Shown: in pieces, positions 5,842-37,890 of the stretch
Layout of the letters: each line of letters starts with the position of its first letter
Position numbering within the stretch: position 1 is the stretch's first letter
Source of the DNA: SAR202 cluster bacterium bin87
GTDB taxonomy: Bacteria; Chloroflexota; Dehalococcoidia; Lucifugimonadales; UBA3495
Reading direction: 5' to 3'
Length of the DNA: 64,000 nt
NCBI GenBank assembly: GCA_002238825.1
Contig: MPNC01000017.1
Location: forward strand, 4,324-68,323
The notes under the pieces: model-generated
Seen by the model: only the letters and a program-made list of their open reading frames with translations
Databases searched by the model: none
Told to the model about the DNA's origin: nothing
Made by a program: the position numbers and the translations under genes

Positions 5842-6216
5842 TCAGACGTTTCTTCTACCAAGGACCTCCTCAAAATCCTGCGGAGTCGGCGGGAATATGT
5901 GGAACCATCTGTAATTGAATACACGCTCACGGTCCTGGTCTGTGTCCTGTAGAGCGTCCGCCAGGCCTGCTCCTGGCTTTCCTGTTTCTTGGTTGACCAC
6001 TAACACGGTCAGTGGCGGCAGGCTGTTGGCCTGGCAGTAAAGCATGACCGGGTCTAGGAGACCGGACATGAACTGGCCAGCTCCTTGGTACCCCAGTTTC
6101 TGGGCAAGAGCATTGTAGGTCGTAGTTTGCCGGTTGGCAGCCATCGCGATGAGTATCTGCCAGATCTGCAAGGCCCGGTTAGGTTGTGTCGACTCTTCCT
6201 TAAATCGTCTTACCAT
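5842..6216 (-). CDS. hypothetical protein, possible winged-helix DNA-binding fold
   Basis: 124-aa ORF in a lower-GC patch (TTYNALAQKLGY...LPPLTVLVVNQETGKPGAG). No family recognised with confidence. Confidence 0.45.
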   Translation of the reverse strand: MVRRFKEESTQPNRALQIWQILIAMAANRQTTTYNALAQKLGYQGAGQFMSGLLDPVMLYCQANSLPPLTVLVVNQETGKPGAGLADALQDTDQDRERVFNYRWFHIFPPTPQDFEEVLGRRNV

Positions 6217-6448: not shown

Positions 6449-6952
6449 TTATGGATTTCGACGCGATGGCGGCAGGATCAGGTCCTCAACCTCGACTCCC
6501 AGGGTCCGTGCGATTGCCGTGAGGGTCTCGGTTCGCGGGCTATGCTCTCCATTCTCAATGCGGGTGAGCGTTACCCTGCCGATCCCCGCGCGGGATGAAA
6601 GGTCCGCCTGGGTCAAACCCGCCGCCTCACGACGCTCCCGGATACGCCCACCCAGACTCGCGCGCGCCTGCCTGGCCTGAGCCTCTATCCGCGGTCGGTA
6701 GGTCGGATCGCAGTAGTGGCGGGCGAAGTCCCAGGGGATCTCGGACAGATCGCCGCTAACCGTGATCAGGATCATCTCATACGGCGTGGGCAGTTCCAGG
6801 CCCTTGAGACCGTCGCCCTTCGCAACTTCGGGCAGGTCACTGAACGGGATCAGGCCGGAGCATCCATCCACGAAGGTGAGCTCGATTCCCTCGTCCAGCA
6901 CAGAGGCGGACGACATCATGCGGTCGGCGTTTTTCACCAGCGTCGTGGCCAT
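6449..6952 (-). CDS. DUF2442-like domain fused to an XRE-family HTH
   Basis: 167-aa ORF. The C-terminal LGGRIRERREAAGLTQADLSSRAGIGRVTLTRIENGEHSPRTETLTAIARTLGV is a classic XRE HTH. Its start lies 7 nt after the stop of the DUF4160 gene. Confidence 0.7.
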   Translation of the reverse strand: MATTLVKNADRMMSSASVLDEGIELTFVDGCSGLIPFSDLPEVAKGDGLKGLELPTPYEMILITVSGDLSEIPWDFARHYCDPTYRPRIEAQARQARASLGGRIRERREAAGLTQADLSSRAGIGRVTLTRIENGEHSPRTETLTAIARTLGVEVEDLILPPSRRNP

Positions 6953-7385: not shown

Positions 7386-8372
7386 CTAATGCACCTCCAC
7401 GTATGACCCTGGCAGGTTGCCGGGTCGGTAGCCGTTATCGGAGTCGGCCATGCGTTGCAAAACGCTCCGATGAATCTTGGCGCCGTCCGGAATTTGGCGG
7501 TCCTTCGCGCCCAGCCGCCATATATGCTGATCAGACCGTCGTGTCTCCCCTGAATGGTCGGCGTTCAGAGACTCCCTCCAGTCGGGTCTCAGTTTCAATC
7601 CCTTGTCCTCGGCGTGGCGCAGCATCCATTCCAGCGTGATGTCGGAGATGCGCCGGTCGGATTCCTGTCCTCCCACGTCTCCGTGGCATCCGGGGAACCA
7701 CACCTGCTCGATGGTCTGGCCGGCGGGCAGATCGGTCTCGTCCCACTGCGAAACCCTGAAGTGGCGGCGTCTTTCATCCAGGGCCAGCGCCTGGTATCCA
7801 TAGGTGACATCGTGGTTCAGACGGTTGTTGGAAAACTGTTTCCGCCTCACCCATCCGATCGAGGCCACGGTGTCCCATACGCCGATGAAGTGAGGCCTGC
7901 ACTGGCGGGAGAAACTGCGCTTGAACCCAGCGGCGATTTCATCGTTGCCCGCGCGGCGGTAGATGGAGGTCATGTAGGGGACCAGGTTCTCGCTCCCTCT
8001 GGTGAGCAGACCGCACTTGTGCAACATGCCGGCCAGCACCCGGACGGTGTGAGCGCCCCGGCTGTACCCAAACAGGTAGACCTGGTCCCCTGGCTCGTAG
8101 CCGGCCATGAGGTATCGGTAAGCTTCCCTGACATTCCCGTTCAGACCCTCGCTGGTTATCCCCATGCCGGACGCCGACGCGACCAGCATGTCCAGCAAAC
8201 CGATGGTCCCGTTCCGCAACGGACTGTGGGTTCCGACGCCCGGGTCGTAGTAGGAGATCTGCTCCGGACCATCCGGACCCAGACGCTCGAACAGGCGCAC
8301 TATGTTGGTGTTCTTGTCCGGGGCGTCGTACTTGCCCCGCGTGCCGTCGCAGCAAATTACGATTCTTTTCAT
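7386..8372 (-). CDS. DUF2235 (Tle1-like) alpha/beta hydrolase
   Basis: 328-aa ORF. It has IVICCDGT...NTNIVRLF, the nucleophile-elbow-like YLFGYSRGAHTVR, and FIGVWDTVASIG. Confidence 0.7.
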   Translation of the reverse strand: MKRIVICCDGTRGKYDAPDKNTNIVRLFERLGPDGPEQISYYDPGVGTHSPLRNGTIGLLDMLVASASGMGITSEGLNGNVREAYRYLMAGYEPGDQVYLFGYSRGAHTVRVLAGMLHKCGLLTRGSENLVPYMTSIYRRAGNDEIAAGFKRSFSRQCRPHFIGVWDTVASIGWVRRKQFSNNRLNHDVTYGYQALALDERRRHFRVSQWDETDLPAGQTIEQVWFPGCHGDVGGQESDRRISDITLEWMLRHAEDKGLKLRPDWRESLNADHSGETRRSDQHIWRLGAKDRQIPDGAKIHRSVLQRMADSDNGYRPGNLPGSYVEVH

Positions 8373-8397
8373 GATCCATTCCCGGTGAGCGGTTCAG

Positions 8398-8625
8398 CTA
8401 CTTATCGTTCATCAACGTCGTCCCCAGGCTCGATAATGCCGTGATCCCCACCGGCAGCAGCCCCACGAGCGCGCCGGTGACAAATTCCGAAATCTCATCG
8501 GTCGTGATTGCCAGGTAAACCAGATAGCCGATTCCCCCGTTCAGTATCGCGATCAAGAGCGCGATGACCAACAGGTTCACGCGCACGGGCGTGAACCAAC
8601 GGCGTTTCCCTGATTCCTCTGCCAT
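8398..8625 (-). CDS. small two-TM membrane protein
   Basis: Only the last 75 codons of the 358-aa ORF look real. The start MAEESGKRRW is preceded by AAAGGAGG. There are two hydrophobic segments. Confidence 0.5.
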   Translation of the reverse strand: MAEESGKRRWFTPVRVNLLVIALLIAILNGGIGYLVYLAITTDEISEFVTGALVGLLPVGITALSSLGTTLMNDK

Positions 8626-9005
8626 GACGATGCCTCCTTTTCCGGCGCCGCTCGTCAACCTCGACCAGGACGCAGCTGCCCTCACCTGGCCCGAGCAGTC
8701 CCCGGTGTTGATGCTTCTGCAGGGTTGACTGCCTCGCAGGTCCCGTCGGTGTGGGATGCTAACCCATGCGACCGCGACGGCGCCGACCACGCCACTGCGA
8801 GCGGGCCGAGCGACAGGTTGGCGAGCCCACAATAACGGGCACGAGTATAGTGCCCATTGGGTTGATATCTTCCACCTTGGCCATGCCGACCAGGACCATG
8901 TCTTGATGGTCCTGATCTCCAGGACATTCAGTGAGGTTTGGAACCGGTACCGGGCGCTGGCGTACATCACCCGTTGGCCTCGGCGCCAGGCATGCTCCGC
9001 AATGT

Positions 9006-9203
9006 TCACTCCCGGGATACGGACACCACCGGCCCCGCGCCGGCCCTGACCTCGGTGATGACGCCGGCGGCCACCGCAGCCCTGATGATGTGATGGCGGC
9101 AGTAGTCCTGGCCGGCGATGCGGTAGAGGGTCTTGACGTAGACGGTGTGGGGAGCGCGCACGGGCGGCTCCAGCTCGGCGCCGCAGACAACGCACCTGGA
9201 CAT
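9006..9203 (-). CDS. small Cys/His-containing hypothetical protein
   Basis: 65 codons from MSRCVVCGAELE, preceded by GGAGGTG. It is divergent from the recombinase at 9644. Confidence 0.45.
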   Translation of the reverse strand: MSRCVVCGAELEPPVRAPHTVYVKTLYRIAGQDYCRHHIIRAAVAAGVITEVRAGAGPVVSVSRE

Positions 9204-9308
9204 GGTTCTCACCTCCGGAGGTCTGGTTCGTTGCCGGAAGTGTAGTGGGCCGCCCCGAGGCTCGTTTTGTTCCCTTCCCCGGACAGCTGCCGGGTCGTGG
9301 ACTGGTTT

Positions 9309-9416
9309 CCATTGCATAACAATGGAGACCAATGCATTGGATACCAATTGATTCCACCTCGAATGCATTCCAATGGACAGGTATGGATACCATTGGAATG
9401 GATACCAATGCATTGG
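9309..9416. repeat. cluster of palindromes and TGGATACCA repeats
   Basis: The perfect 12-bp palindrome CCAATGCATTGG occurs at 9329-9340 and 9405-9416. CCATTG-cataa-CAATGG lies at 9309-9325. TGGATACCA occurs three times (about 9338, 9384, 9399). CATTCCAATGG and CCATTGGAATGG form an inverted pair. Confidence 0.85.
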
Positions 9417-9585
9417 TTGCCGTGGGCGCCGATGCGGCCCTGAGCGTGGTCACGGGGCGCGACCGGATGGTCACGGCGGGGCCGGCGGTATAAAACCCGC
9501 CATCGGGGGGCCTTTCAGCCCGCGGTGGTCAGGCAAACGACGGTGCAAGTGCCCCTTGCGCCCATCTTGCGCACATTTATTCGCC

Positions 9586-9609
9586 GCGCGATAATTACGG
9601 TTATCGCGC
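9586..9609. promoter_or_regulatory. perfect 9-bp inverted repeat upstream of the recombinase
   Basis: GCGCGATAA-ttacgg-TTATCGCGC lies about 35-50 bp upstream of the possible starts. Confidence 0.4.
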
Positions 9610-9643
9610 ATCTTTTACCCGCCCGGATCGCCCCTGAAATCCC

Positions 9644-10627
9644 TTGACCGGAGACCCCCAGATGACCACCGCCGCCGACCATCAGATCGTCCCGCGCCAA
9701 TCCTCACCTCTCCCCGAGCTGCGGGCCGCCGACCGGGGCGTCGCTGAGTCGCTCGAGTCGGTCCTCGCCGACAACACCCGCCGGACCTACACCACCCAGT
9801 GGCGCAGCTTCACCGGCTGGTGCGACGAGGTGGGCCTCCGCTCTCTGCCCGCCGAGCCGCTCACCGTGGCTCGCTACCTGGCCGCCCGCGCGGGCTCCGG
9901 CGCCAGCATCGCCACCATCCGGCTGGCCACGTCGGCCATCTCGAAAGCGCACGAGTGGGCCAAGCTGGAATCACCCTGCCGGGACCCGGGCGTGCGCGCG
10001 TCTTTGAAAGGATGGGGGCGTAGGCTTGCCAAGCCCCAGCGCCAGTCCGGGGCTCTGACCGCCGACGTGCTCGCCGTGATCCGGCTCACCGCGGTGCAGC
10101 CTCGCAAACGCGGCCGCGGGTTCGAGACGCCCGAGCAGGCAGCGGAGCGGGGGAAGTTTGACGTGGCGCTGGTGGCGGCGCTGTCCGACGCCGGGTTGAG
10201 ACGCAGCGAGGCCGCTGCGCTGATCTGGGGCGGCGTGCAGCGCTGGGACGACGGCTCCGGCCGCATCACCGTGATTCGTTCGAAGACCGACGCCGAGGCC
10301 CAGGGCGCGGTGGTGGCCATAACCCCCGCCGCCATGGAGGCGCTTGCCGCCATCCGGCCGGCGGGGGTTGGCGGTGGCGAGAAGGTCTTCAGACTTTCGG
10401 AGTCGCAGATCGCCCGGCGGGTGAAGGCCATCGCCCAGGCCGCGGGGTTAGAGGATTGGGAGTACTTCAGCGGCCACAGCGGGCGCGTCGGCATGGCCCG
10501 GCGCATGGCCCAGAACGGCGCCCCCACCCACGAGATCGAGCGCCAGGGCCGCTGGAAACAGGGCGGCGGCATGGTCGGCCGCTACACCCGCGGCGAGACC
10601 GCCGGCTCGGCGCTCAGATACCTGTAG
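9644..10627 (+). CDS. Cre-like tyrosine recombinase (catalytic residues intact)
   Basis: 327-aa ORF. An alternative ATG at 9661 follows GGAGA. GLRRSE (Arg), RSKTD (Lys), GHSGRVG (His-x-x-Arg), GRW (Trp) and GRYTRG (Tyr) line up with the Cre catalytic set. Confidence 0.85.
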   Translation: MTGDPQMTTAADHQIVPRQSSPLPELRAADRGVAESLESVLADNTRRTYTTQWRSFTGWCDEVGLRSLPAEPLTVARYLAARAGSGASIATIRLATSAISKAHEWAKLESPCRDPGVRASLKGWGRRLAKPQRQSGALTADVLAVIRLTAVQPRKRGRGFETPEQAAERGKFDVALVAALSDAGLRRSEAAALIWGGVQRWDDGSGRITVIRSKTDAEAQGAVVAITPAAMEALAAIRPAGVGGGEKVFRLSESQIARRVKAIAQAAGLEDWEYFSGHSGRVGMARRMAQNGAPTHEIERQGRWKQGGGMVGRYTRGETAGSALRYL

Positions 10628-10656
10628 CCATGAGCAGATGGGTGTTGACCGTCCAT

Positions 10657-11322
10657 TCATAATCCGGCATCGATTGCGCCATTCATAAATTGTTGGGCAC
10701 ATTGGTAGTGCCAATTGGTTCGCAATTCAGTCCTGAACCTACGTAACTCGCACCCCGGTGTATGGGGCGGATTACTGGAATTGTAGAACACAATCTTCCG
10801 GCAATCGAAAGGCCGGGTTAGTTCACGAAATAACGGCAAATAGCTCTTGCCGCCGAAGAATACTATTGGTTCGCTGCACTCTTCGGGAATCAGGCACAAA
10901 TCCCTAAAATCTGTGCTGGCGTCTCGCCTAATCCCGGTGCCACGCTTCGCAGAGAAAGTGACGTCGTATGGTGGCGTCAGGAATTCACTATTGATCAGTC
11001 CCCAACCGGCGGAGAGGACATAGACACGGCCAGGGCCATAGGTTTCGACCAACCTGGAATAGGCCGGGTTCCGGTAAAGTTGCCATGCTGGTAGGAGACC
11101 TAATGGATTGGAACCCGGGCTTTCGTTGTAATCCAGTAACCTACGCCGCCATGATTCCCCATATTCGGATATATCGTCCGGGTGCGCGTACACATACTCC
11201 GGGTGGTGATGGTCAGGCATCTCTGCGGGTTTGGCCACGAACATAACCGGCGAGCCGTCCCCTCGCGTCAGTGAACCCGCCCCGTGTCGTTTGTCTCCAG
11301 CACACTGGATAACGAAAATCAC
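10657..11322 (-). CDS. hypothetical protein, DUF6884-like pattern
   Basis: 221-aa ORF in a lower-GC block. The pattern VIQCAGDK ... LYRNPAYSRL ... YVLSAGWGLI ... PPYDVTF resembles my recollection of DUF6884-type proteins. Confidence 0.5.
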   Translation of the reverse strand: MIFVIQCAGDKRHGAGSLTRGDGSPVMFVAKPAEMPDHHHPEYVYAHPDDISEYGESWRRRLLDYNESPGSNPLGLLPAWQLYRNPAYSRLVETYGPGRVYVLSAGWGLINSEFLTPPYDVTFSAKRGTGIRRDASTDFRDLCLIPEECSEPIVFFGGKSYLPLFRELTRPFDCRKIVFYNSSNPPHTPGCELRRFRTELRTNWHYQCAQQFMNGAIDAGL

Positions 11323-11429
11323 CGTTTCACCTCCATCGCAGCCACGGTGGGAGCCAGGGGTTTTGCCATGATCGGCTGAGAACGCCTGTCAATGCGGCCG
11401 GGCTCACATGGCCGTACAGTTGGGTCCCC

Positions 11430-11528
11430 CACGAGATCGAGCGCCGGGACCGCTGCACACAGGGTGGCAGCATGGTCGGCCACTACACCCGCGGCGAACC
11501 CGCAGGGTCCCCGCTGCGCTACCTGTAA
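11430..11528 (+). pseudogene. 3' fragment of a third Cre-like recombinase copy
   Basis: It translates to HEIERRDRCTQGGSMVGHYTRGEPAGSPLRYL*. The end of the 9644-10627 product reads HEIERQGRWKQGGGMVGRYTRGETAGSALRYL*. Confidence 0.85.
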
Positions 11529-26880: not shown

Positions 26881-27345
26881 TTGCTGCCACCCCTGACCAG
26901 CGGCGCCCAGCCTCCCAGCCAGCTGCTGCGAAAGTTCGCGGCCTATCCGCGCCAGCACGAACTGGCCGTCACTCTCCGCGAAATCGGACGGGTCGAACGC
27001 ACCCTCTTCATCGTCGACTGGATGCTCGACGCCGATATGCAGCGTCGAGCCAACACCGGCCTGAACAAGGGCGAGGCTCATCACGCGCTCAAGAACGCCC
27101 TCCACATCGCGCGCCAGGGCGAAATCCGCGACCGCTCCAGCGAGGGCCAGCATTACCGCATGCCCGGGCTCAACCTGCTCGCCGCCATCGTCGTTTACTG
27201 GAACACCGCCCACCTCGGCGGAGCGGTTGGACAGCGGAAACACGCCGGGCCGACCGTCGAGCCCGAGCTCCTGGCCCACATCTCACCCCTGGGATGGGCC
27301 CGCATCCTGCTGACCGGCGAATACCGGTGGCCAAAGCGCCGATAG
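26881..27345 (+). pseudogene. C-terminal stub of a Tn3-family transposase
   Basis: YPRQHELAVTLREIGRVERTLFIVDWMLDADMQRRANTGLNKGEAHHALKNALHIARQGEIRDRS...LNLLAAIVVYWNT...ISPLGWARILLTGEYRW matches the conserved TnpA C-terminus. About 850 upstream codons are missing. Confidence 0.8.
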
Positions 27346-27349
27346 CGAC

Positions 27350-27387
27350 CTTAGCGTACGATTCTGCCCCCTACCGGAATCGACCCC
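27350..27387 (-). repeat. Tn3-family terminal inverted repeat (right)
   Basis: The reverse complement reads GGGGTCGATTCCGGTAGGGGGCAGAATCGTACGCTAAG. Confidence 0.85.
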
Positions 27388-27629
27388 TTCCTGCGGTAGT
27401 TGAGCACCCTGAGCCCCAGCGGGAGTAGAGCTGGTTACCTCCGACGCTCACTAGGGGCTGAAAATGCCATCGCCGCGGTGTTCGCTGGGGCCAACTAGCA
27501 GCGCTGCCGCACCCACCTCATGATCAAACTCTGCTCGCGTTGGGGGGACGGTCGGCACCACCGGTCGCTCAGCGTCAGTAGTTCGCAGATTTCTACCGAA
27601 AGTCTGACAACAGATGACATTTCTCCCGC

Positions 27630-27920
27630 TTATAGACCCCAAGCATCTTTGAGGATGAGGTACTCTTGTTGATAGCCATGCGTCCGCAGATGTTCCAAGT
27701 AAACCTCTCGTGGGGGTATGTTACTGTAGTATGGGACCGAGCCCCTGGAAAGCCCTCCGCCAGTTCCCCTGGAAAGCCCTCCGCCAGTTCCCCTGGAAAG
27801 CCCTCCGCCAGTTCCCCTGGAAAGCCCTCCGCCAGTTCCCCTGGAAAGCCCCCCGCCAGGGCTCTTGTTCAGTCCCCCACCAGTTCCCGTGGAACTATTC
27901 CGTGACCATCCTTTTGACAT
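27630..27920 (-). CDS. small protein with GGGLSRGT tandem repeats
   Basis: 96-aa ORF. It has five 8-residue Gly-rich repeats followed by VPYYSNIPPREVYLEHLRTHGYQQEYLILKDAWGL. Confidence 0.45.
   Translation of the reverse strand: MSKGWSRNSSTGTGGGLNKSPGGGLSRGTGGGLSRGTGGGLSRGTGGGLSRGTGGGLSRGSVPYYSNIPPREVYLEHLRTHGYQQEYLILKDAWGL
27742..27861. repeat. 5 x 24-bp tandem repeat (4 perfect, 1 degenerate)
   Basis: CCCCTGGAAAGCCCTCCGCCAGTT at 27742, 27766, 27790 and 27814, with a degenerate copy at 27838. Confidence 0.9.
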
Positions 27921-28167
27921 AATTCCGCATTACCTCCTAGCTGAGTGCCGCTCCGCGAATCATACTACGGCAATCAAGCCGAATCGGGCGACCATTTACA
28001 TTGCCAGTCATCGCACACAGGACACCCGCCCACGGCAATCCCGACCTTCTTCGATTTGCACAACGCTCGTTACGTGAAGTAGTTTGTTGGGGACTGCAAC
28101 CGCCAGCGCGACTCCGTTTTCCGCCGCCCTCTATAAGACAACGTCGAATTTAGGCGTGGTATATGCT

Positions 28168-29703
28168 TCAGACCAAGCGTCCTACCCTGTCGAACGGTAC
28201 CTCGGCAATGCTCCGGTAGATATCGACCACTTCGTCATTGAATTCAAACCGATTGGCGAGCGTGTCCACAACCACTTGGACTATCAGGGACGCGCATCCT
28301 ATCACCGAAGCGGGCGGAGCGTTGTTGACCGGGGCCGAGCACCCCAGTGCGGGCGTCGCGAAGTCGTTACGTCCATCACCTCCGGGGATAACAGGATATT
28401 TGGCGCCTTCCTCCCTGAGGTGGATCGGAGTATCCCCTGCCAACACTTGACGCTGCACCCGTGCCACACTGCCCCCACGGTAAAGCGCACCGGATACCAG
28501 TGGCTTTCTCCATTTCTCGGCGACCATGGCCAACGCAGGTACGAATGCATCGTTGCCAGTAGCGTCGATCACGATATCCGCGCTCGAGATGAGTTCACAT
28601 ATCCTACCGGGAGTCATCGGAGCTTCCGGAAACTCGCCAACCTCGGTCCAGGGAGCGTGCTTTTCAATCACGTGATGGACAGCTTGCACCTTGGGCTTGC
28701 CCACCTGGTCATGGCCCGCGACGTGTCTGACCACGTTCTCGGGTAAAAGTACGTCGCCGTCCACGATGTCCAAGTGGCCGAGCCCGCTTTCCGCGAGCGT
28801 GGTCCCAACGTAACCTCCCAGAGCGCCGGCCCCGAACATAGTTGCCCTGATGGTCCGCAGCACCGGCGCGTCAGGGCCCGCGCGCGCGATCAGGTTGTTT
28901 TCATCGGTTGGTCCTGGCTGCAATGCGATCGCCTCCACATCATTATTCATTCCTGCACACGCCATCACCAGCGCGTCTTTCGCTTCGTACCGCTCCCAAC
29001 AGAATAGGATGAAATCCACTCCGCCGCTGGATACGAACGGTTCAGGCCTACGCCGGTCGTCCAATTGGCGCCTTAGCGGTTTGGCTTGGGCCCGGGATAG
29101 GCACCGGAACACTTCCGAAAGCTGACGGGGCGGCGGGGTGGTCAATCGGCTCGGGTGGAACCAGAGGCCGCGCAGATGATTCGACGACCTGGCGCGCCCC
29201 GGACCCACATCGATCCTTGGTGGAGCCCGGTTCACAACACCATGCAGATCTCCCCAACCGCCTCTGTGGATGCCGAGCTCATCACGGTCGAAGGTTACAA
29301 CGATGGGCAGTTTCCTCTGAAAGTTCAGGAAAGCGTCATATCCCAAGTCATCGCCTTCCCAGCCATGCTCTGCACTCTCGCACCATTCCTCAATACGCGA
29401 GAAAAATCCCTCTGCAGTCTCCCAATCGCGGCTGGAATCTCCGTCCTGCCACATACAGACAAACCCACCAAGCGTGGAGTGGTTGGTGTCAAGGCCATCG
29501 ACGAACAGGGCCGGAGGCCGAAATGGCCATCCTTCCACGATCATGATATCCATGGTCGTTGCCGCGGTCAGGGGCGCAAACGCCTCATGGATCGGGCCGC
29601 GCCAGCGCGATTGATTCACAGCCGATACCGGAGCGAAGCCGGCCGCCTTCAGATCGCACTCGAACGCTTCTAACGACTCCATGTGGAAATGGTCGTCCGT
29701 CAT
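28168..29703 (-). CDS. cap2: CBASS Cap2-like E2/E1 fusion protein
   Basis: 511-aa ORF. The N-terminal E2-like region has HSTLGGFVCMWQDGD. The C-terminal ThiF/E1 adenylation domain has MFGAGALGGYVGTTLAESGLGHLDIVDGDVLLPENVVRH. Its start is 5 nt after the CD-NTase stop. Confidence 0.8.
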   Translation of the reverse strand: MTDDHFHMESLEAFECDLKAAGFAPVSAVNQSRWRGPIHEAFAPLTAATTMDIMIVEGWPFRPPALFVDGLDTNHSTLGGFVCMWQDGDSSRDWETAEGFFSRIEEWCESAEHGWEGDDLGYDAFLNFQRKLPIVVTFDRDELGIHRGGWGDLHGVVNRAPPRIDVGPGRARSSNHLRGLWFHPSRLTTPPPRQLSEVFRCLSRAQAKPLRRQLDDRRRPEPFVSSGGVDFILFCWERYEAKDALVMACAGMNNDVEAIALQPGPTDENNLIARAGPDAPVLRTIRATMFGAGALGGYVGTTLAESGLGHLDIVDGDVLLPENVVRHVAGHDQVGKPKVQAVHHVIEKHAPWTEVGEFPEAPMTPGRICELISSADIVIDATGNDAFVPALAMVAEKWRKPLVSGALYRGGSVARVQRQVLAGDTPIHLREEGAKYPVIPGGDGRNDFATPALGCSAPVNNAPPASVIGCASLIVQVVVDTLANRFEFNDEVVDIYRSIAEVPFDRVGRLV

Positions 29704-29708
29704 GGCGC

Positions 29709-30743
29709 TTATCCGAACCTGCGCGCCTCATTCGGCCGCTGGGCTACCGGTGTGGAACCAGCACCAGCTGCGGCGGTGCGGGCGCTACGCCCCGAGCCTT
29801 GGCCAGCACGGTTTCCGCTCCCGACCGCGTTGGATCCTCCACCACCAGAACTCCCGCCTTTGCCGAAGCTATCGCCGAACAGTTCCTGCCAGATCTTGAT
29901 GGCCTTCTCAGCCGAAGGCTCAGCTTTCGCTCGCTTCGCGGTTCCCGCGTAAGACTGGACTCGGTTCCTGAAGTTGGCGTATTTACGCTGGTCCCAGTGC
30001 CGGTTGAAGTTCTCCGTCGGCAGCACCGGATTCTTGATCTCCGGCATATTGGGGTGCTGCTGCAGGTAGTTGTCCATCCGGGACAGGACGGTCTCCAGCG
30101 TGTCGGCCACCGTGCTCACCGCCGCGGTTCCTTTATCGGACGCCTTGATAGTGTTGCCGGCCAGGGTGGTCAGGAGAATCGACTTGGCGGTAAAGCTGTT
30201 CTTGTGGTCCCGAAGGTGCTTGAGCAACCTGACCACTCGCTTCAGATTGCCACCGGTGATGCGATTCTTTTCGTTGAACCAGTCGCGGTATCCGGTACCG
30301 TCAGTTTCTTCGAATTTGTTGTCAACCCGGTTGCAGACGTAGTGCTTACCACCGCTGGTCACCCGGGGTACTGTGTCGAGGTGAAAATCGCCGGCGTAGT
30401 CGACGGTCACGCACCTGGTCTTGAGCCTGAGCTTGTCGACGTAGTTCTTGTTACCAGCCAGCGTCTTGTTAATCGCGTGGACGTAGTCTTTGGCTTCCCA
30501 CTTGGGGTTCGGGTTCATCACGATCTGGATGTCGGCATCATACTCATCGTTGTCGTCCACCGGCTTGATGAGTGTACCCAGGGCATAGGACCCCTGCTTG
30601 TCCATTGTTTGGTACCCAGGCAGGTTGTCCTTGAGATAGTCGTTCACCGCGCCCACGGATGTTTCCAGTCGGTCCAGCCGGCTCTGATTTAGGTTCACCT
30701 CATCCCTGAGAAACTCGGCGAACTGCTGAATATTCTTGGTCAA
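29709..30743 (-). CDS. CD-NTase (SMODS-type cGAS/DncV-like nucleotidyltransferase) with a long Gly-terminated tail
   Basis: 344-aa ORF with a TTG start after AAGGAG. It has QGSYALGTLIKP...EYDADIQIV and DFHLDTVPR (GS / DxD / third-Asp pattern). About 50 residues of G/S/A-rich tail end in ...EARRFG*. Confidence 0.8.
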   Translation of the reverse strand: MTKNIQQFAEFLRDEVNLNQSRLDRLETSVGAVNDYLKDNLPGYQTMDKQGSYALGTLIKPVDDNDEYDADIQIVMNPNPKWEAKDYVHAINKTLAGNKNYVDKLRLKTRCVTVDYAGDFHLDTVPRVTSGGKHYVCNRVDNKFEETDGTGYRDWFNEKNRITGGNLKRVVRLLKHLRDHKNSFTAKSILLTTLAGNTIKASDKGTAAVSTVADTLETVLSRMDNYLQQHPNMPEIKNPVLPTENFNRHWDQRKYANFRNRVQSYAGTAKRAKAEPSAEKAIKIWQELFGDSFGKGGSSGGGGSNAVGSGNRAGQGSGRSARTAAAGAGSTPVAQRPNEARRFG

Positions 30744-30761
30744 TGTCCTTACTCCTTACAG

Positions 30762-31793
30762 TTATGCCAACGCCGTGAATGGCGCCGAAATGTGAGTTAA
30801 AAACGCCGCCGAAATCCGGTCGGCGTACTGCTCCGCGACGGCGCATGCTTCATCCGGCAGCAACCGTCTGGCCTTCTCCCAATCGTCCAGATCGACGCGC
30901 TCGGCTCCTTCCAGTCGATCCAGACGCGTAACCTTGTCGCGACCGATCAGCAGCCCAGCCTGATTGACCGCGGTGAGGGACTGGTAGTGCATGGCCACGT
31001 AGATGATCTCACGCCATTGAAACTGCCCGGCTCCGGCCGCCTGCTTGCTGCCAATCCGAAAACCGTCCTGTCCGCACCCGATGCTCAGGATCGCGATGTT
31101 CTCCCGTTGTACCGTGAAGCAGGTCAGAGCTTCGACCAAACCCATCATGGTCGGATTGTTAGCCCAGATGCCCCCGTCCAGGAGGATGTACCCATCTTGA
31201 ACCACCGGCTTCAGGTAGGTAGGAGCTGCCGAAGTCGCGGCCGCCACCTCGGCCATGGGCTTGTCGCCGTCCAGGAAATACCCGGGATGGTGGGGAGTCT
31301 TATACACCGCGGGGTCTCCATGCTTGGCCTCGGTCGCCGGTATCAGCAACCGATATCTGGATTCCCGAAGGGTTATCTCCCCCAGAGTCTCACGAAGCAG
31401 TTCATCCAGGGCGGCCCGATCGTATCGATTGCGCGACAACCGACTCAGTAATCGCTGACCGCTCGCACGTTGCTCCGGAGGAAACACACGGTGGCCCTCG
31501 TTGACGTACAGATCCAGCAGAGAGCGCGCCGTCAGTCCAGCGCCCAACCCCAGGGCTATGATCCCACCGGTCGAGGTGCCGGCAATCAGGTCGAAGTAGT
31601 CGCCGATTGGCTGACCGTCAAGGCAGTTCTCCTCCAGATAGGCCAGGATCGCCACCGGGAAAATGCCCTTGATGCCGCCGCCATCAATCGACAGGATCCT
31701 GAATGTGGCGTCGTCGGGCCAAGGCAATGGTTCCCGACGGGTCTGCAGGATCGTAGCCGACCTGCGTGCTGGTTTATCGCGCTCTGCATTCAT
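30762..31793 (-). CDS. capV: patatin-like phospholipase effector
   Basis: 343-aa ORF with ILSIDGGGIKG, the nucleophile motif AGTSTGG, and DGGIWANNP. Confidence 0.85.
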   Translation of the reverse strand: MNAERDKPARRSATILQTRREPLPWPDDATFRILSIDGGGIKGIFPVAILAYLEENCLDGQPIGDYFDLIAGTSTGGIIALGLGAGLTARSLLDLYVNEGHRVFPPEQRASGQRLLSRLSRNRYDRAALDELLRETLGEITLRESRYRLLIPATEAKHGDPAVYKTPHHPGYFLDGDKPMAEVAAATSAAPTYLKPVVQDGYILLDGGIWANNPTMMGLVEALTCFTVQRENIAILSIGCGQDGFRIGSKQAAGAGQFQWREIIYVAMHYQSLTAVNQAGLLIGRDKVTRLDRLEGAERVDLDDWEKARRLLPDEACAVAEQYADRISAAFLTHISAPFTALA

Positions 31794-31817
31794 GACATAA
31801 AAACCGAAATCAGCGGA

Positions 31818-31833
31818 TACGCTAATCAGCGTA
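31818..31833. promoter_or_regulatory. 16-bp palindrome in the capP-capV intergenic spacer, candidate operator
   Basis: TACGCT-aatc-AGCGTA lies within the 67-nt gap upstream of capV. Confidence 0.3.
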
Positions 31834-31860
31834 GCACAGCCCGCAAAAAATGCAAGCCAC

Positions 31861-32598
31861 TTACTTCAATCCCAGCGACCGTTCCTCAGGCCTGTCCGTC
31901 AGGTATCCCAACTGCGCCAGCCTCACCCTCGCCGCATCATTCGAGACTTCAAACTGGCCCGCTATCCTGGCGATGAGATCTGCCCCTTTGACAGACGCGG
32001 TTGGAACTGACCCAAAAGTACCCCATGCGTCAAAGGTCATCTGGACCAACCGTCCGAGTCGCGTGACCGGCATCAGGATGGCTCCCGATACGTACCCGGC
32101 CTGCCACTCCATCCAATCGACGCCGGATCCCCCGCTGTCTCCCGGCCTTTTACACCTGGGCCCGGGCGCTTCCTCCTCATCCGGGAAAAGCCTGGGCTGA
32201 TCGAATGGCCACAACCTCGCGTGCAACTTCACGTGGCCGAACTCGTGGGTGAGGGTCGTCCGCAACCGGTGTTCCCGGTGGCTTGCATCGGCCAGCTCCT
32301 GGGAGATTTTCACCACGGGTTTCTGGTCAGGATAAAACAGGGTCAGCCCCTGTACCTCCTCACCCTCCTCGCCTTCCTCACTGAGGTCGGCGTACTGGTC
32401 CAAGTCGGACGTATCACATTCGATCATGACGGTCAGGTCCTGAGTCGACACCGGGAACTCAGCCTTCCCGTACGTCTCCAGCAGGAAGCCAACGATCCAT
32501 TCCTCGCTCAGGCTATCCAGCTCCTCCTGACGATAATAAGGCCGCTCCGGAAAGCGGCCCGTCCGATCTTTGATCCATCTGATCGAGTTAGCGCTCAT
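31861..32598 (-). CDS. capP: ImmA/IrrE-family Zn metallopeptidase (CapP-like)
   Basis: 245-aa ORF with the HExxH motif (LTHEFGHVKLH). Its ATG overlaps the stop of the HTH gene (ATGA). Confidence 0.75.
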   Translation of the reverse strand: MSANSIRWIKDRTGRFPERPYYRQEELDSLSEEWIVGFLLETYGKAEFPVSTQDLTVMIECDTSDLDQYADLSEEGEEGEEVQGLTLFYPDQKPVVKISQELADASHREHRLRTTLTHEFGHVKLHARLWPFDQPRLFPDEEEAPGPRCKRPGDSGGSGVDWMEWQAGYVSGAILMPVTRLGRLVQMTFDAWGTFGSVPTASVKGADLIARIAGQFEVSNDAARVRLAQLGYLTDRPEERSLGLK

Positions 32599-32912
32599 CG
32601 GCTCCGGCCACTCAGGTTGCGCCGGAAGGCCTTCATGGCAGTTGTGATGCCTTCCCGGTCACGCGACATCTCGAGCATATCCGAGGGGAACCTCCCCGCC
32701 AGAAAGAGCAGATAGTCCAAGTCCAAGTCCAAGGTATCCGCCAACTGGCGAACGATATGTTCGCTGGGAGGATTGCGCCGGTCATGCTCAATATCGTTCA
32801 GATATTGAGCCGAGATGGCCTGGCCGTCCTCCTTCAAGGTTTCGGCCGCTACCTGCTTCTGGCTCAGTTTTCTGTCCTTGCGGGCCTGTGTGATTGCTTC
32901 TCCGAATGTCAT
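32595..32912 (-). CDS. capH: XRE-family HTH regulator (CapH-like)
   Basis: 105-aa ORF with LSQKQVAAETLKEDGQAISAQYLNDIEHDRRNPP. It is paired with the metallopeptidase directly upstream of CBASS. Confidence 0.75.
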   Translation of the reverse strand: MTFGEAITQARKDRKLSQKQVAAETLKEDGQAISAQYLNDIEHDRRNPPSEHIVRQLADTLDLDLDYLLFLAGRFPSDMLEMSRDREGITTAMKAFRRNLSGRSR

Positions 32913-33209
32913 AACGCCCGCTCCTCAATGCTGGTTCCACCACACCGCACCCCCGCAGTGGGACACTGGCAACCGTGATCTACATAGAGCGTAACACCTG
33001 CCCGGAGGGCGGTGTGCAACCTCCCAACACAACCGGTCAGTGGCATTCGAGACCTCTCCTGCCCGTCGATGTATTGCTACTGAACACGACGAGCGCCTCA
33101 CCATCACGATTGCCGCCAAGAATACCAACGGGGTGGATTCACGTAAAGACCGATCCCGCCCGCCAGCCCTGTCATCCCAACCAACTACAGCGCCGGTATC
33201 GCACGCGGA

Positions 33210-36170
33210 TTATCGGGAGCTGTCCCCGAACAGTTCCTGCCAGAGTTTGACGGCCTCCTCAGCCGAGGGCTTGGCTTTCGCCTGCTGCGCCGTCTGTGCG
33301 TACGATTGGATCCGGTCCCTGAAATTGGCGTACCTCCGCTGGTCCCAGTACCGGTTGAAGTTCTCCGTAGGCAGCACCGGATTCTTGATCTCCGGCAAAT
33401 TGGGATGCTGTTGCAGGTAATCGTTCATCCGGGAGAGGACGGTCTCCAGCGTGTCGGCCACCGTGCTCACCGCCGCGGTTCCTTTATCAGACTCCCGAAT
33501 CATGTTGCCGGAGAGAGTCGTCAACATGATCGACTTGGCGGTGAAACTGCTCTTGTGGTCCCGGAGGTATTTGAGCAGTCTGACCACTCGCTTCAGGTTG
33601 CCGCCTGTGATGAGATCCTTTTCATTGAACCAGTCGCGGTACCTATTACCGTCCGTCTCCTCGAACTTGTTGTCGATCCGGTTGCAGACGTAATGCTTAC
33701 CTTCGATGGTCACCCGAGGAACCACATCCAGGTGAAAGTCGCCGGCGTAAGCGACCGTTACGCACCTGGTCTTGAGCCGGAGCTTATCGGCATACGTCTT
33801 GTTGCCAGCCAAGGTACGGTTGATCGCGAGGACATAGTCCTTCGGTTCCCACTTAGGATGCAGGTCCATCACGATTTGGATATCGGCATCATACTCATCG
33901 CCGCCGTCCACCGGCTTGATGAGCGTATCCAGGGCGTAAGAGCCCTGCCTCTCCATCTTCTGGTATCCGGTCAGGTTGTCTTTAAGGTAGCCGTTCACCG
34001 CTCCCACGGCAGTTCCCAATCGGTCCAGACGGCTCTGGTTGAGATTCACTTCGTTCTGCAGTTTCCTGGACGTCAACTCGGCACTACTAGTTGCCTCCCT
34101 CAACAGCATATCGAAGCTGATCCCAGCCAAATCGCGCCGAACATCTTTCGCAACCGCATGCACTTCCTTGGCGACGTGCGTCTCCTGGCCTTGCTCTTGC
34201 TGCAGAGCGGTAATCAAGGGCAGCAGCAAACCTGCCGCCGGTGATGCCTGTATGAGTTCCAGAGCGCGGGCCACACCGAATATCACAGACAATTGTGTCA
34301 ATGCCTGGATGAAACCCGGGCGGAGTTCGCCCTCTTTGGCCAAACAGCCCAGCAACAAAGAGAAATCGTTCTCAGTAAGGTTTTTCCCTTGGAGGAGGAG
34401 GGCAGCCGCCTTGGACAACAGTGCGCTGGTCACTTTCCCAACCATGCTCTTCGCATTATCAGAGGCGAACCTCTCCACGACTGCGTCAAAAACGACCGCC
34501 GCTTCGCTTGGGTTTTGGTTCTGCATCAGAGCCAACCCCTTACGATGCATCGTGTCAGCTACCAGTTCGCTGAGTTCAGTGGTTGGCACGGTGGCCAAAC
34601 AGTCCAAAGCTTGGTCATACGCGTAAACAGCTTCAGATGCATTCCCGAGTTGAGACCACGCCCTTCCTTTGCTATCCAACGCTGTTCCGAGCATGACGAC
34701 CACCGCAGGGTCTCTGCTCGTTCCAAAGGTGACCAGCATTTGGTCGCACGCGCCGATGCCCTCAAGATACCGGCCCGCCCAGTTCAACCGCAGGACCTTG
34801 TTCAACAAAGCCACAGCCGCCTGGTGCCGATCACCTGTCACCTGGGACATCCGCAACCTATCTGCAACCTGCTCAAAGATGGCGACGGCTTCATTATCAT
34901 GACCAATATCGGCCAAGAGTTGCGCTTTTTGGATCAACACCTGGGCTACCGGCTCTTGAACGTCAGCCGTTTCAAGGCGGGATTCCCGGTAGATGTCCGC
35001 GACAATATCCCACAGATCTGCCGGTGAATAGAGGCAAGCCATGAAGTCTATAAGCGCTTCAACCACCTGACTGGACCCGCTGTCCCTTCGCAACAGATAG
35101 TAGATGTTGTAAAGCCGCTCGCTCAGGTAGTACTGCCGGCGCCGAGGCGTTCCCCCGACGACGACTACAGCCCCCCGTTCCATTAAGCGCGCCAACAAGG
35201 CGCTGCACTTGTTGATATCGAGACGAGACTGATCGGCAACCTCTCTGGCGGTAGCAGGTTTCCATAACCTGGCCAAGGAGAGATAAACCCGGCGCTCCAG
35301 TGCCGGCAACGATTCCAGGTGGCTCTTGAAATACTCCGTGTGGTCGTCAACCAGGTCCAGCAGATTGCTTTTTAGTTCACCGAACGACCGGCCGACGCCA
35401 AAAAGAGCGATGATAGTAAGCAATCTGGGATTGCCTCCGGTGAGGATCTCCAGGGGCCTGACCGCCAGGGTTGTGGACGGTTGTCCGCTGACAGCCTCCC
35501 ACAGGGCCACGCATTCTGGTGTATCCAGGGGATGTAGTGTGATTACCCGAAACAGATCGTATAGCGCATGATCGGGATGGTCGATTTCGTCGAACCGGCT
35601 GGTGGCGCTGCCCAGCAGGACAATGCGAGGCTCCGTCTGCAGGGTGTGGCGCAACCGCCATCCCGCGTCAGGATCATCCATGTCGGCGAACAGCATATTC
35701 AGGTTTTCCACCACCAACACGACCCGTTTCCCGTGGCGGTCCGCGAAATCCAGAACCGACCCCAGGCAGCGGTCGGCCAGGTCCCGGTCATTCCCGGTGG
35801 TCCTGAGGTCATCATAGGACAGGCGCAAATCGGCGCGCTCGTCGTCCGGAGCCTGCTCCACCAAACGGCCCACGCACTCCAACCAGAATTCCCCAATGGT
35901 GGAGATCTCGTAACTCTCCTCCGCGAACACGATGGGGTAGAATCCCTCCAGCGCGCCATCCCGGCGCGCCTCAGCCGCCACGCGTAGCAGCAAGTGGGTT
36001 TTTCCGCTGCCTCGCGGTCCGATCACCAATGCGTGGGCGTTGGATTGGCCGGTACTCGCGCGCAGGCATTCCAAGAGCGACTCGAACTCGCCGGTGCGCA
36101 CGCAGAACGACGCTACGATCTCATCGTCGGTGAGGAAGCCAGGGTTGTATTTCTTGACGCCGACTGCCAT
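33210..36170 (-). CDS. fusion protein: STAND/ORC-like P-loop ATPase + wHTH + TPR-like repeats + C-terminal CD-NTase (SMODS) domain
   Basis: The ORF is open to 36242. The likely start MAVGVKKYNPGF at 36170 is preceded by GGGGGA. It has Walker A VIGPRGSGKTHLLL and Walker B-like RVVLVVENLN. The last 280 aa are colinear with, and very similar to, the 29709-30743 CD-NTase (QGSYALDT...EYDADIQIV...DFHLDVVPR). Confidence 0.8.
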   Translation of the reverse strand: MAVGVKKYNPGFLTDDEIVASFCVRTGEFESLLECLRASTGQSNAHALVIGPRGSGKTHLLLRVAAEARRDGALEGFYPIVFAEESYEISTIGEFWLECVGRLVEQAPDDERADLRLSYDDLRTTGNDRDLADRCLGSVLDFADRHGKRVVLVVENLNMLFADMDDPDAGWRLRHTLQTEPRIVLLGSATSRFDEIDHPDHALYDLFRVITLHPLDTPECVALWEAVSGQPSTTLAVRPLEILTGGNPRLLTIIALFGVGRSFGELKSNLLDLVDDHTEYFKSHLESLPALERRVYLSLARLWKPATAREVADQSRLDINKCSALLARLMERGAVVVVGGTPRRRQYYLSERLYNIYYLLRRDSGSSQVVEALIDFMACLYSPADLWDIVADIYRESRLETADVQEPVAQVLIQKAQLLADIGHDNEAVAIFEQVADRLRMSQVTGDRHQAAVALLNKVLRLNWAGRYLEGIGACDQMLVTFGTSRDPAVVVMLGTALDSKGRAWSQLGNASEAVYAYDQALDCLATVPTTELSELVADTMHRKGLALMQNQNPSEAAVVFDAVVERFASDNAKSMVGKVTSALLSKAAALLLQGKNLTENDFSLLLGCLAKEGELRPGFIQALTQLSVIFGVARALELIQASPAAGLLLPLITALQQEQGQETHVAKEVHAVAKDVRRDLAGISFDMLLREATSSAELTSRKLQNEVNLNQSRLDRLGTAVGAVNGYLKDNLTGYQKMERQGSYALDTLIKPVDGGDEYDADIQIVMDLHPKWEPKDYVLAINRTLAGNKTYADKLRLKTRCVTVAYAGDFHLDVVPRVTIEGKHYVCNRIDNKFEETDGNRYRDWFNEKDLITGGNLKRVVRLLKYLRDHKSSFTAKSIMLTTLSGNMIRESDKGTAAVSTVADTLETVLSRMNDYLQQHPNLPEIKNPVLPTENFNRYWDQRRYANFRDRIQSYAQTAQQAKAKPSAEEAVKLWQELFGDSSR

Positions 36171-36190
36171 TGCGGTCCCCCATTCCTGAT

Positions 36191-37471
36191 CTATCGCCGG
36201 TTGATCGGGGTGAAGTATTGACCGTGCCGGGCGCGCCACCAATCCTCCAGCAGGCCGGACACGAAGCCGTAACCTCCGTCCTGGCCCTCCAGGTACCCGT
36301 CATGCTCCAGCGAATAAAGCACATGCTCGACGGGCACTCCTTCGTCATCTGAAGAGAGCGGCGACGACTCCCGGTAGCGCCGCGCGGTTTCGTGAGTCAG
36401 CAGACCGCCGTTGACCGCGGCTTCAGTCAAAAGGCCGAGAGCCACCGTATAGCTCTGGCCCCCCAGGACAGTTCGCAGACGGTCCTCGTAATGCACCAGG
36501 TCAACCTGTCCCCGCACGCTGAGCAGTTCGTGTTCGTACACCTGCGCCACGTCGGCCATGGTCGCCTCGCTCCTCTGATCCCTGACCAGGCGTTCGTGGA
36601 GGTGATGGAAAAACTGCTGGACGTGATGCGGAACGCAACAGCGCAACCGGCGACACATCTCGCCGCGCACCTCTTCGGAGAGATGTATCCCCTGCCCACG
36701 GGCCAATGCAGCCAGGCAGTCAATCGATATCTCCCGACTCCAAGGCTGCAAGTCGAAGGGCGCAAAAACGTTGGCCTGAGCGCTGAGGCCTGCCTGCCTG
36801 AGAATGGGGCCCAACCCGACGCTCCCTGAGATGATCAAGCAGACCCTGCCGGGATACGCCTGGCAATTTCGCCTCAGCCAGCTCATGAACCGGTCCGTGG
36901 CTGCGCGGCGCTCCGGAGTGATGCGGTAATCATGCCCCTTCAGCAGACGGTTTACTAGGATGGAAAGCTCGTCAATGGCCAGCACCACCGGCCGTTCGTT
37001 GGCTGCCAGAGCTTCAAAGAACCGGTCGCCATCACGCTGCCAGTTTCCGGCGTCCATTCCGGCGCGTAACCGCACCTTCAGCTCGGATACTCCCACCTCC
37101 TCCACATTGTCGCGGATGTCCCCCAGGCGGTTGGTGGACCACGTCTGGATACGCCTCCAGATGCTCTGGACCGATTGAGCCTGGATCGCCATCTCGGCGA
37201 CGGCATCAGCCCCGTCCATGGCGGCTTCCAGGTCCACGAACACGGTGGCAAACTGCCCCTCGTCATCCAATCGCCGCAGCAGTTCCCGCACCAGGCTGGT
37301 CTTGCCCATGCGACGCTGCGCGGTCAGGAGCGTGTGCGTGCCGTTTTCCACACGCTCCCGCAGCGCTTCGATCTCGGCCTCTCGATCAAAGAAACGGTCG
37401 CCGTAGACCCAGTTACTGCCGCCTGGGACGAGTTCCAGTTCGCCATCCGGTTGGGTAAAGTTGCTTGCCAT
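36191..37471 (-). CDS. archaeal-ATPase/ORC-like P-loop ATPase
   Basis: Internal start MASNFTQPDG at 37471. It has FFDREAEIEALRERV...AQRRMGKTSLVRELL (Walker A) and VVLAIDELSIL (Walker B). It ends 20 nt before the fusion gene start. Confidence 0.7.
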   Translation of the reverse strand: MASNFTQPDGELELVPGGSNWVYGDRFFDREAEIEALRERVENGTHTLLTAQRRMGKTSLVRELLRRLDDEGQFATVFVDLEAAMDGADAVAEMAIQAQSVQSIWRRIQTWSTNRLGDIRDNVEEVGVSELKVRLRAGMDAGNWQRDGDRFFEALAANERPVVLAIDELSILVNRLLKGHDYRITPERRAATDRFMSWLRRNCQAYPGRVCLIISGSVGLGPILRQAGLSAQANVFAPFDLQPWSREISIDCLAALARGQGIHLSEEVRGEMCRRLRCCVPHHVQQFFHHLHERLVRDQRSEATMADVAQVYEHELLSVRGQVDLVHYEDRLRTVLGGQSYTVALGLLTEAAVNGGLLTHETARRYRESSPLSSDDEGVPVEHVLYSLEHDGYLEGQDGGYGFVSGLLEDWWRARHGQYFTPINRR

Positions 37472-37533
37472 TGATAGATCGTAACACGCAACATATACGT
37501 TGGCAACAAACACGTTGGCAACAGCACCGGTTG

Positions 37534-37890
37534 TTTGCCGAACTGCGGCTGGCCGGCGCAACCACCCTGGAGCGGGCTCGGGCGGTGCTCGATGAGTTTG
37601 TGCCTCGGTTCAACCGGCGCTTCGGCGTTCCCCCGCAGCGCTCCGAGCCAGCGTTCCGACCGCTGGACCAGCAGTTGTGCCTAGAGCAGGTGCTGTGTTT
37701 CCAGCACCGCCGGAAGGTGGACCGGGACAACACGGTGCGGTTCCAGTTGCAGACACTCCAACTGCTGCCGGCGCCGGAACGCCCCAGCTATGCCGGGGCG
37801 ACGGCGGAAGTCCTGGAGGGGCTGGATGCTCAGCTCAAGGTACGCCACGCGGGACGCATCGTCGCTGCCCAGGAGGCCCCGCCAGGTCCG
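37534..37890 (+). pseudogene. C-terminal fragment of a DDE transposase (IS481/ISNCY-like)
   Basis: AELRLAGATTLERARAVLDEFVPRFNRRFGVPP...RKVDRDNTVRFQLQTLQL...AEVLEGLDAQLKVRHAGRIV. There is no catalytic N-terminal part. A separate HTH-like scrap (RERWKAIQQARRKGMSLRAIE) follows at about 38090-38160. Confidence 0.5.

Follow-up and report, generated by a model that had tools for sequence, protein, structure and literature searches.

A type II-like CBASS operon of a SAR202 bacterium with Cap2 and without Cap3, and a clade of relatives that likewise lack Cap3

In the literature on type II CBASS (cyclic-oligonucleotide-based antiphage signalling systems), the E1E2 conjugation protein Cap2 is stated to be always accompanied by the JAB protein Cap3, and the regulatory genes capH and capP are stated to be divergent from the genes they adjoin. 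Only two classes, E1E2/JAB and E2-only, are described by Jenson et al. and in a 2026 paper. In a literature search for natural Cap2 systems devoid of Cap3, whose scope excludes the tables of Millman 2020 and Burroughs 2015, only experimental deletions were retrieved. Here, we analyzed a CBASS operon located in a stretch of 64,000 nt (the window, to which all coordinates refer) of contig MPNC01000017.1 from the SAR202 cluster bacterium bin87. On sequence evidence, this operon is probably a working member of a type II-like CBASS lineage that possesses Cap2 and never Cap3. It is a natural variant and not the result of damage by the nearby transposon.

The operon is made of five intact and closely spaced genes on the minus strand, as read from the open reading frames (ORFs). 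The first gene, capH (32595-32912), codes for a small XRE-type helix-turn-helix (HTH) repressor of 105 aa, as expected for CapH, and is recognized by HTH_19 (8.8e-10), HTH_3 (5.8e-9), HTH_31 and the PADLOC capH model (7.5e-7). It is followed by a capP-like gene (31861-32598) encoding a 245-aa HExxH zinc peptidase of the M78/ImmA/IrrE type (PADLOC capP, 1.1e-8) and by capV (30762-31793), the 343-aa product of which is a patatin-like phospholipase effector (Patatin, 3.8e-30; PADLOC CBASS phospholipase effector, 6e-105) bearing the GTSTG and DGG motifs in its translation. The fourth gene (29709-30743) codes for a 344-aa nucleotidyltransferase of the cGAS/DncV type, or CD-NTase (SMODS, 3.1e-29; DncV-like NTase, 5.7e-12; PADLOC cyclase, 1.8e-113) in which the catalytic motifs GSYALGT, YDADI and HLDTVP are present; its best matches in the PDB reach only about 1e-13 and do not place it in a named clade. 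The final gene of the conserved cassette, cap2 (28168-29703), specifies a 511-aa fusion of an E2-like domain, a linker and an E1 (ThiF) domain. The effector and the cyclase are those of a type II CBASS, according to the patatin and PADLOC effector matches for the former and to the SMODS/DncV matches and catalytic motifs for the latter. The start of the capP-like gene overlaps the end of capH by 4 nt, and the following gaps measure 67 nt (capP-capV), 18 nt (capV-CD-NTase) and 5 nt (CD-NTase-cap2). Both the gene order and the tight or overlapping spacing proposed by an earlier, sequence-only reading of this DNA are thus borne out by the ORFs and by the Pfam and PADLOC matches.

The five genes are under purifying selection, with ratios of non-synonymous to synonymous substitutions (dN/dS) of 0.06-0.22 when compared with the related loci L003 and L010. 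This bears on the idea that the operon is a decaying, functionless remnant in a transposon-ridden island. Tn3 and insertion sequence (IS) debris do surround the operon and degradation is visible in some relatives, such as L004 and L014; however, the five frames are uninterrupted, the catalytic motifs are kept and the dN/dS values hold against both relatives, which makes such a decay very improbable. No match to the operon was found among the PLSDB plasmids by megablast.

The presence of Cap3 was investigated by searching the complete genome in all six frames for matches to the Prok-JAB profile (PF14464). No match was observed on the contig of the window, in agreement with the earlier claim that no Cap3 stands beside cap2. 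Relatives were then collected from a contig scan (two loci), a phylum-wide genome search (one more genome) and a metagenome scan (29 further loci); the Cap2 family as a whole counts 543 homologues at E <= 1e-30. The five-gene cassette was also found in L010, L003 (a Dehalococcoidia metagenome-assembled genome), L011 and L015, and L012 carries the three core genes without capH-capP. A Cap3 hidden Markov model (HMM) was built from the four JAB genes located directly 3' of distant cap2 relatives (L028, L031, L032 and L039), the Prok-JAB scores of which (1e-11 to 7e-15) served as positive control. Applied to the six frames of every locus, this model placed a Cap3 gene immediately behind cap2 in 16 loci (15 distinct), all of them more distant ones; the clade of the window gave no such match. 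In the maximum-likelihood tree of Cap2, the window belongs to a clade of 19 rows with a support of 94/95, and the Cap3-bearing rows lie outside. This clade corresponds to 18 distinct members, since L016 is identical to the second copy present in the window's own genome. No PF14464 match of a Cap3 was retained in any of the 19 rows: near cap2, G278 and the L003 and L004 genomes are free of JAB genes, and none was detected among the neighbouring genes called in L010-L015 or in the downstream ORFs of the metagenome loci of the clade. The absence extends over three types of effector, namely patatin, Cap17-like and TIR-SAVED, the last of which is found in G278.

Two further loci of the clade deserve a description. 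On contig C6 of the same genome (L008, 19000-38000), a second Cap3-less CBASS begins with a PIN-like gene and a divergent HTH-M78 fusion. Its effector is Cap17-like, its CD-NTase has the end ...GGIG and its Cap2 is 71% identical to that of the window; this Cap2 is followed by an AbiEi/AbiEii pair and an ORF of 1223 aa, not by Cap3. In L025, an 801-aa Prok-E2_A/ThiF/Prok-JAB triple fusion lies 1.5 kb downstream of the Cap3-less CBASS and is the only JAB match within the loci of the clade. It is preceded by a 386-aa ORF with a weak match to the metallo-beta-lactamase fold. This region (7903-11465) looks like a '6a'-type ubiquitin-like system, separate from the neighbouring CBASS.

The DNA downstream of cap2 was compared with that of the relatives. 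As previously noticed, 247 non-coding nt separate the cap2 stop from an ORF encoding a Gly-repeat peptide, which is followed by a 63-codon ORF, and a Tn3-type inverted repeat ends at 27387. The Gly-repeat ORF (27630-27920, minus strand) is 96 codons long, encodes five repeats of the type GGGLS(R/K)GT and may have a Shine-Dalgarno sequence. It lies outside the conserved cassette, is single-copy in the genome, is not found in the relatives and has no family match in Pfam or PADLOC. The 63-codon ORF (27451-27642, minus strand), also without Pfam or PADLOC match, is probably not a gene because it runs antisense on a decayed fragment of an IS256-family transposase (Transposase_mut; 27419-27540, plus strand); this fragment was identified by tblastn with the transposase of L010, covers residues ~223-263 and contains in-frame stops and a frame change. 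The absence of JAB from both downstream ORFs, also claimed earlier, is in agreement with these results. The Tn3-family terminal inverted repeat is a 38-bp sequence (27350-27387, minus strand; GGGGTCG...ACGCTAAG) next to which an ORF (26881-27345) encodes the C-terminus of a Tn3 transposase (last 144 positions of DDE_Tnp_Tn3, 1.4e-46).

From this proximity, the sequence-only reading had proposed that Cap3 was lost through the Tn3 insertion. The Tn3 end and the IS256-type fragment are indeed found within 780 nt of the cap2 stop, and IS debris is also present downstream of the cassette in L003. Nevertheless, the comparison of the syntenic loci gave another picture. With the closest relative, L010, the blastn homology extends from 33151 to 28068 with 91.5% identity and then ends, so that only 100 nt past cap2 (28068-28167, minus strand) are shared; they are non-coding and are followed in L010 by unrelated genes without JAB. 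With L003, L011, L015 and L012, the homology ends between 28170 and 28272, and beyond this limit the flanks of the five relatives are all different. The cassette therefore ends at the cap2 stop or at most 100 nt past it, and the JAB gene is missing in the relatives too. The next 527 nt of the window (27541-28067), which include the Gly-repeat ORF, are absent from the five relatives and single-copy in the genome. Moreover, the Tn3 end truncates the IS256-type fragment at 780 nt from cap2, and the Tn3 element was therefore inserted into the IS and not into the CBASS operon. L011, L012, L013, L015, L020 and L022 possess intact, non-IS neighbours and still no Cap3, in line with the 19 JAB-less rows of the clade. 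Finally, in Cap3-bearing relatives the Prok-JAB gene overlaps or directly abuts the cap2 stop, whereas here the DNA following the stop is non-coding and conserved with L010. The removal of a former Cap3 gene from this genome by Tn3 or IS insertions beside cap2 is hence hardly credible, and the other suggestion of the same reading, a lineage working without deconjugation, fits the clade-wide absence of JAB.

The Cap2 protein was examined as well. Its ThiF domain was detected at residues 282-412 (Pfam, 4.3e-22) and the PADLOC E1-E2 model PDLC00847 matches its full length (3.5e-165). PADLOC thus already holds a profile that fits the Cap2 clade, and these proteins are therefore catalogued, even if the missing Cap3 is not discussed. 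A profile search of the PDB retrieved the Cap2 structures 7TSQ/7TO3 at about 1e-14. In 30 homologues, residues N74, H75, G80, C83 and W85 of the E2-like loop, the GxGxxG motif and the crossover-loop residue C455 are invariant; with the ThiF domain, the last two are the features expected of the E1 part. The best PDB match of the AlphaFold model (pLDDT 70, the confidence score of the model) is the E. cloacae Cap2 7TO3_A (583 columns, Foldseek E 3.8e-18), and full-length Atg7 is also matched. In the N-terminal domain, Prok-E2_A matches sit at the right place, all below threshold, and the hhalign alignment with a bona fide Prok-E2_A domain (P = 0.0055) superimposes the His, Cys and Trp residues.

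Separately, weak matches of residues 1-270 with MPN/CSN6-like proteins (E 0.05-0.15) raised the question of a hidden JAMM protease within Cap2. This candidate was rejected because the region matched contains neither an invariant His nor the E...HxH...S..D motif.

Cap2 could also have acquired a new job in this clade, either binding or adenylating the cyclase tail without transfer or acting like the stand-alone E2 of E2-CBASS, an enzyme that carries out the processing as well as the linkage of its cyclase; a deconjugase would therefore be unneeded in both cases. The clade is indeed far from the characterized Cap2 proteins (with phmmer, 7TO3 is matched at 1.6e-6 and in the E1 part only), the N-H...C-x-W motif around Cys83 resembles the HPN and Trp features of canonical E2 enzymes, of which E. 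cloacae Cap2 is devoid (Ledvina et al.), and E2-CBASS is an established JAB-less class. On the other hand, full-length Cap2 is what the protein resembles in architecture and in its best structural match, neither the two Cys residues nor the adenylation motifs vary, the cyclase has a conserved Gly as its last residue like the Cap2 substrates, and the Cap3-bearing relatives align across the whole of Cap2 with 37-46% identity. A change of function is accordingly regarded as improbable.

A terminal Gly or Ala is a hallmark of Cap2 substrates (Jenson et al.), and the CD-NTase of the window, with its Gly/Ser-rich tail, ends in ...NEARRFG. In the clade, the CD-NTases stop exactly at a conserved ...NEA-x-x-FG or ...IG in the 18 readable rows (17 distinct), the CD-NTase of L014, which is cut at its 5' end, having been left out of this count. 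These cyclases therefore possess a ready-made end of the substrate type and trimming should be unneeded. In L026 and L027, two Cap3-less loci outside the clade, the CD-NTase ends in ...GHA. Among the four full-length Cap3-bearing relatives, two display 4-5 residues beyond G-F-A, namely L031 (GSFA-GRDS, ~5925-5993) and L039 (SGFA-TGLDT, ~5940-6005); because of this extension, their sequences suggest that Cap3 trims a pro-form of the cyclase in these two loci.

A second CD-NTase domain is encoded directly upstream of the operon. The gene (33210-36242, minus strand) codes for a 1010-aa STAND-ATPase fusion with AAA_16, wHTH and TPR parts; its C-terminal domain is a CD-NTase sharing about 80% identity with the free cyclase. 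The gene is preceded by a 456-aa ATPase gene (36191-37561, minus strand), and both are syntenic in L003. The fusion stops at ...FGDSSR, without the tail of a Cap2 substrate, and the tail of the L003 copy is degenerate (...SIPVGRVLR); since the ...FG tail is missing, the fusion is probably not a substrate of Cap2. Remnants of the 3' part of this gene were found upstream of capH in L010 (4305-4418) and L011 (2393-2651).

The regulatory genes were studied in the same way. The match of the capP-like protein to Peptidase_M78 (7.6e-4) is below the Pfam cut-off, and reaches 1.1e-7 in the L025 homologue; the PADLOC capP match spans only profile positions 25-154 of 242. In a comparison with the PDB, phmmer gave no match and a profile search placed IrrE and CapP on top, not significantly. 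An HEFGH motif is present, and residues H118, E119, H122 and E164, which are expected of an M78/IrrE peptidase, do not vary across 8 homologues; the same holds for C149. The latter sits in the loop that joins HExxH to the distal Glu and recalls the cysteine switch of CapP. According to Lau et al., the vast majority of capH/capP pairs are encoded upstream on the other strand, with a shared promoter region. In the window and in seven further loci (L003, L010, L011, L015, L029 and the distant L019 and L025, in which the CapP identity goes down to 24-29%), the pair lies on the same strand as the core genes. The unusual co-directional arrangement claimed from the sequence alone is therefore confirmed by the gene strands and by the comparison with Lau et al. 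In three other members of the clade, the regulator is an HTH-M78 fusion, divergent and associated with a PIN-like gene.

In L009 (13863-14627, plus strand) and L021 (2704-3534, minus strand), two TIR-SAVED members of the Cap3-less clade, a divergent gene of 254-276 aa with a weak match to a cyclic-nucleotide-binding domain occupies the position of CapH/CapP and may be a different regulator.

Two promoter-like elements were observed. The first (33116-33148, minus strand; TTTACG, 17 nt, TATTCT) is located about 200 nt before the ATG of capH and is the only near-invariant stretch of this region in five loci with 65-94% Cap2 identity, from which we infer that it may act as a promoter. Just downstream of this block, L003 carries a 14-nt tandem duplication (GCGGCAATCGT-TAT / GCGGCAATCGT-AAT, ~6590-6620) which the other loci do not have. 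The second element is found in the capP-capV spacer (31794-31860, minus strand) and consists of a -35-like TTGCAT (31855-31850) and, after 16 nt, the -10-like hexamer TACGCT, which is extended by a preceding TG (TGcTACGCT). A dyad, TACGCT-N4-AGCGTA (31833-31818, minus strand), covers the -10-like hexamer. This promoter-like element and the TACGCT-type half-site at the -10 are conserved in six co-directional loci. The dyad is exact in four of the six and has one mismatch in L015 and L029; in L003 its two arms have changed together (TCCGCT...AGCGGA), and in L011 the palindrome is longer and displaced by several bases. Within the 64-kb window, the dyad is closely matched only in the spacer, the nine matches with three mismatches found elsewhere being within chance, and no convincing match was observed upstream of capH. 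A role of the spacer hairpin as terminator was considered and rejected because the T-run varies while the dyad is kept. The conserved element and its dyad indicate that this spacer probably holds a separate, repressible promoter for the core genes, which CapH may control, and the simple co-transcription of all five genes becomes doubtful for the same reason.

Among the 16 Cap3-less loci whose upstream DNA is long enough, 11 carry a regulator of the CapH/CapP type, with an M78 peptidase; none of four Cap3-bearing relatives does, and among CBASS generally 408 of 6,233 have such a peptidase (~6.5%). On the basis of these frequencies, one may tentatively imagine that Cap3 could be lost once transcription, instead of reversible conjugation, had become the safety brake. 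If so, the CapH/CapP-type switch would silence the operon, the cyclase would be conjugated only in a state of alarm and an enzyme undoing the conjugation would be superfluous. This idea is rather unlikely as it stands.

The same frequencies could be read in another way, deconjugation persisting through an enzyme encoded elsewhere (a JAB protein on contig C28 or another host peptidase) or through the CapP-like metallopeptidase of the operon. In the six-frame PF14464 search, the only Prok-JAB matches of the genome are two sites on contig C28: a good one of 51 bits, corresponding to a 162-aa stand-alone JAB protein, and a weaker one of 19 bits, below the Pfam cut-off. The former, however, lies among housekeeping-type genes and similar stand-alone JABs were found in most control genomes, and specificity for the cognate CD-NTase has been reported for the characterized Cap3 (PMC12948482). 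As to the CapP-like enzyme, M78 peptidases are not known to cleave isopeptide bonds, and 5 of the 16 loci do not possess any M78 peptidase. A deconjugase acting in trans is consequently given little probability.

From the gene content, the conservation, the clade-wide lack of JAB, the cyclase tail, the DNA elements and the purifying selection observed above, the following functioning of the operon may be proposed for a lineage with Cap2 and never Cap3. CapH would repress the spacer promoter via the dyad overlapping the -10. Upon a stress signal, the CapP-like zinc peptidase would remove CapH, and CapV, CD-NTase and Cap2 would be produced. Cap2 would adenylate the terminal Gly344 of the CD-NTase, which would be transferred to Cys455 (E1), to Cys83 (E2) and then to a target, and the cyclase would be primed. 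Upon infection, the primed cyclase would make its cyclic nucleotide, the CapV phospholipase would be activated and cell death would follow. No dedicated enzyme would reverse the conjugation, and the cyclase would be made directly with its mature ...FG end, without C-terminal trimming.

Several observations weigh against this interpretation and lower our confidence in it. The loci are mostly metagenomic and their kinship inflates the counts. The N-terminal domain of Cap2 taken alone gave no significant match to an E2 fold, residues 1-270 being poorly modelled (pLDDT 55) with weak matches to E2 and to the N-terminal domain of Atg7. The 245-aa capP-like protein, with its core at 105-226, is too short to accommodate the GAF domain found in CapP/IrrE, as judged by length and profile coverage. 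The stand-alone JAB of contig C28 could act in trans. Lastly, the 5 clade loci of the 16 without M78 peptidase are also devoid of any CapH/CapP-type regulator, and transcriptional control is therefore no general substitute for Cap3.

What Cap3 contributes to type II CBASS is not settled, and a lineage with an apparently active Cap2, a conserved Gly-ended tail and no Cap3 provides a ready-made comparison set, with which one can ask what the reversibility of cyclase conjugation serves and what replaces it. The co-directional and GAF-less CapP variant, with an operator-like site inside the operon, widens the known CapH/CapP layouts. In addition, such systems would be wrongly classified by annotation rules in which type II CBASS requires a JAB gene.

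In conclusion, the system of the window resembles a type II CBASS but lacks its Cap3, and departs from the known CapH/CapP pairs by the orientation of its regulatory genes and by the missing GAF domain. With the E1E2/JAB systems (V. cholerae DncV-CapV-Cap2-Cap3 and E. cloacae CdnD-Cap4-Cap2-Cap3), it shares a CD-NTase with a disordered, Gly-ended tail, a cyclic-nucleotide-activated effector (here the patatin CapV) and a Cap2 of E2-like/linker/E1 layout directly after the cyclase; in contrast, the window clade is without a Cap3/JAB gene throughout, the Cap2 of the window is about 80 residues shorter and very diverged, and the cyclase has a clade-specific ...NEA-x-x-FG end. With E2-CBASS ('type II short', SmCdnG-SmE2), it has in common a JAB-less ubiquitin-like conjugation accessory and a Gly-ended cyclase. 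Its 511-aa protein, however, combines a full E1 (ThiF) with the E2-like domain and is not a stand-alone E2, and its short cyclase (344 aa) is devoid of the extra C-terminal helix and sheet module of E2-CBASS cyclases. As in the CapH/CapP pairs from E. coli MS115-1 and from Thauera sp. K11 and in DdrO/IrrE of Deinococcus, a small XRE-HTH gene precedes an HExxH M78 peptidase gene, with a Cys in the loop over the peptidase active site and the pair next to a CBASS core. Unlike in CapH/CapP, the pair of the window is co-directional with the core and not divergent, its peptidase is extended by about 100 residues at the N-terminus and is too short to hold a C-terminal GAF domain, and a separate promoter-like element with a dyad stands between capP and capV.

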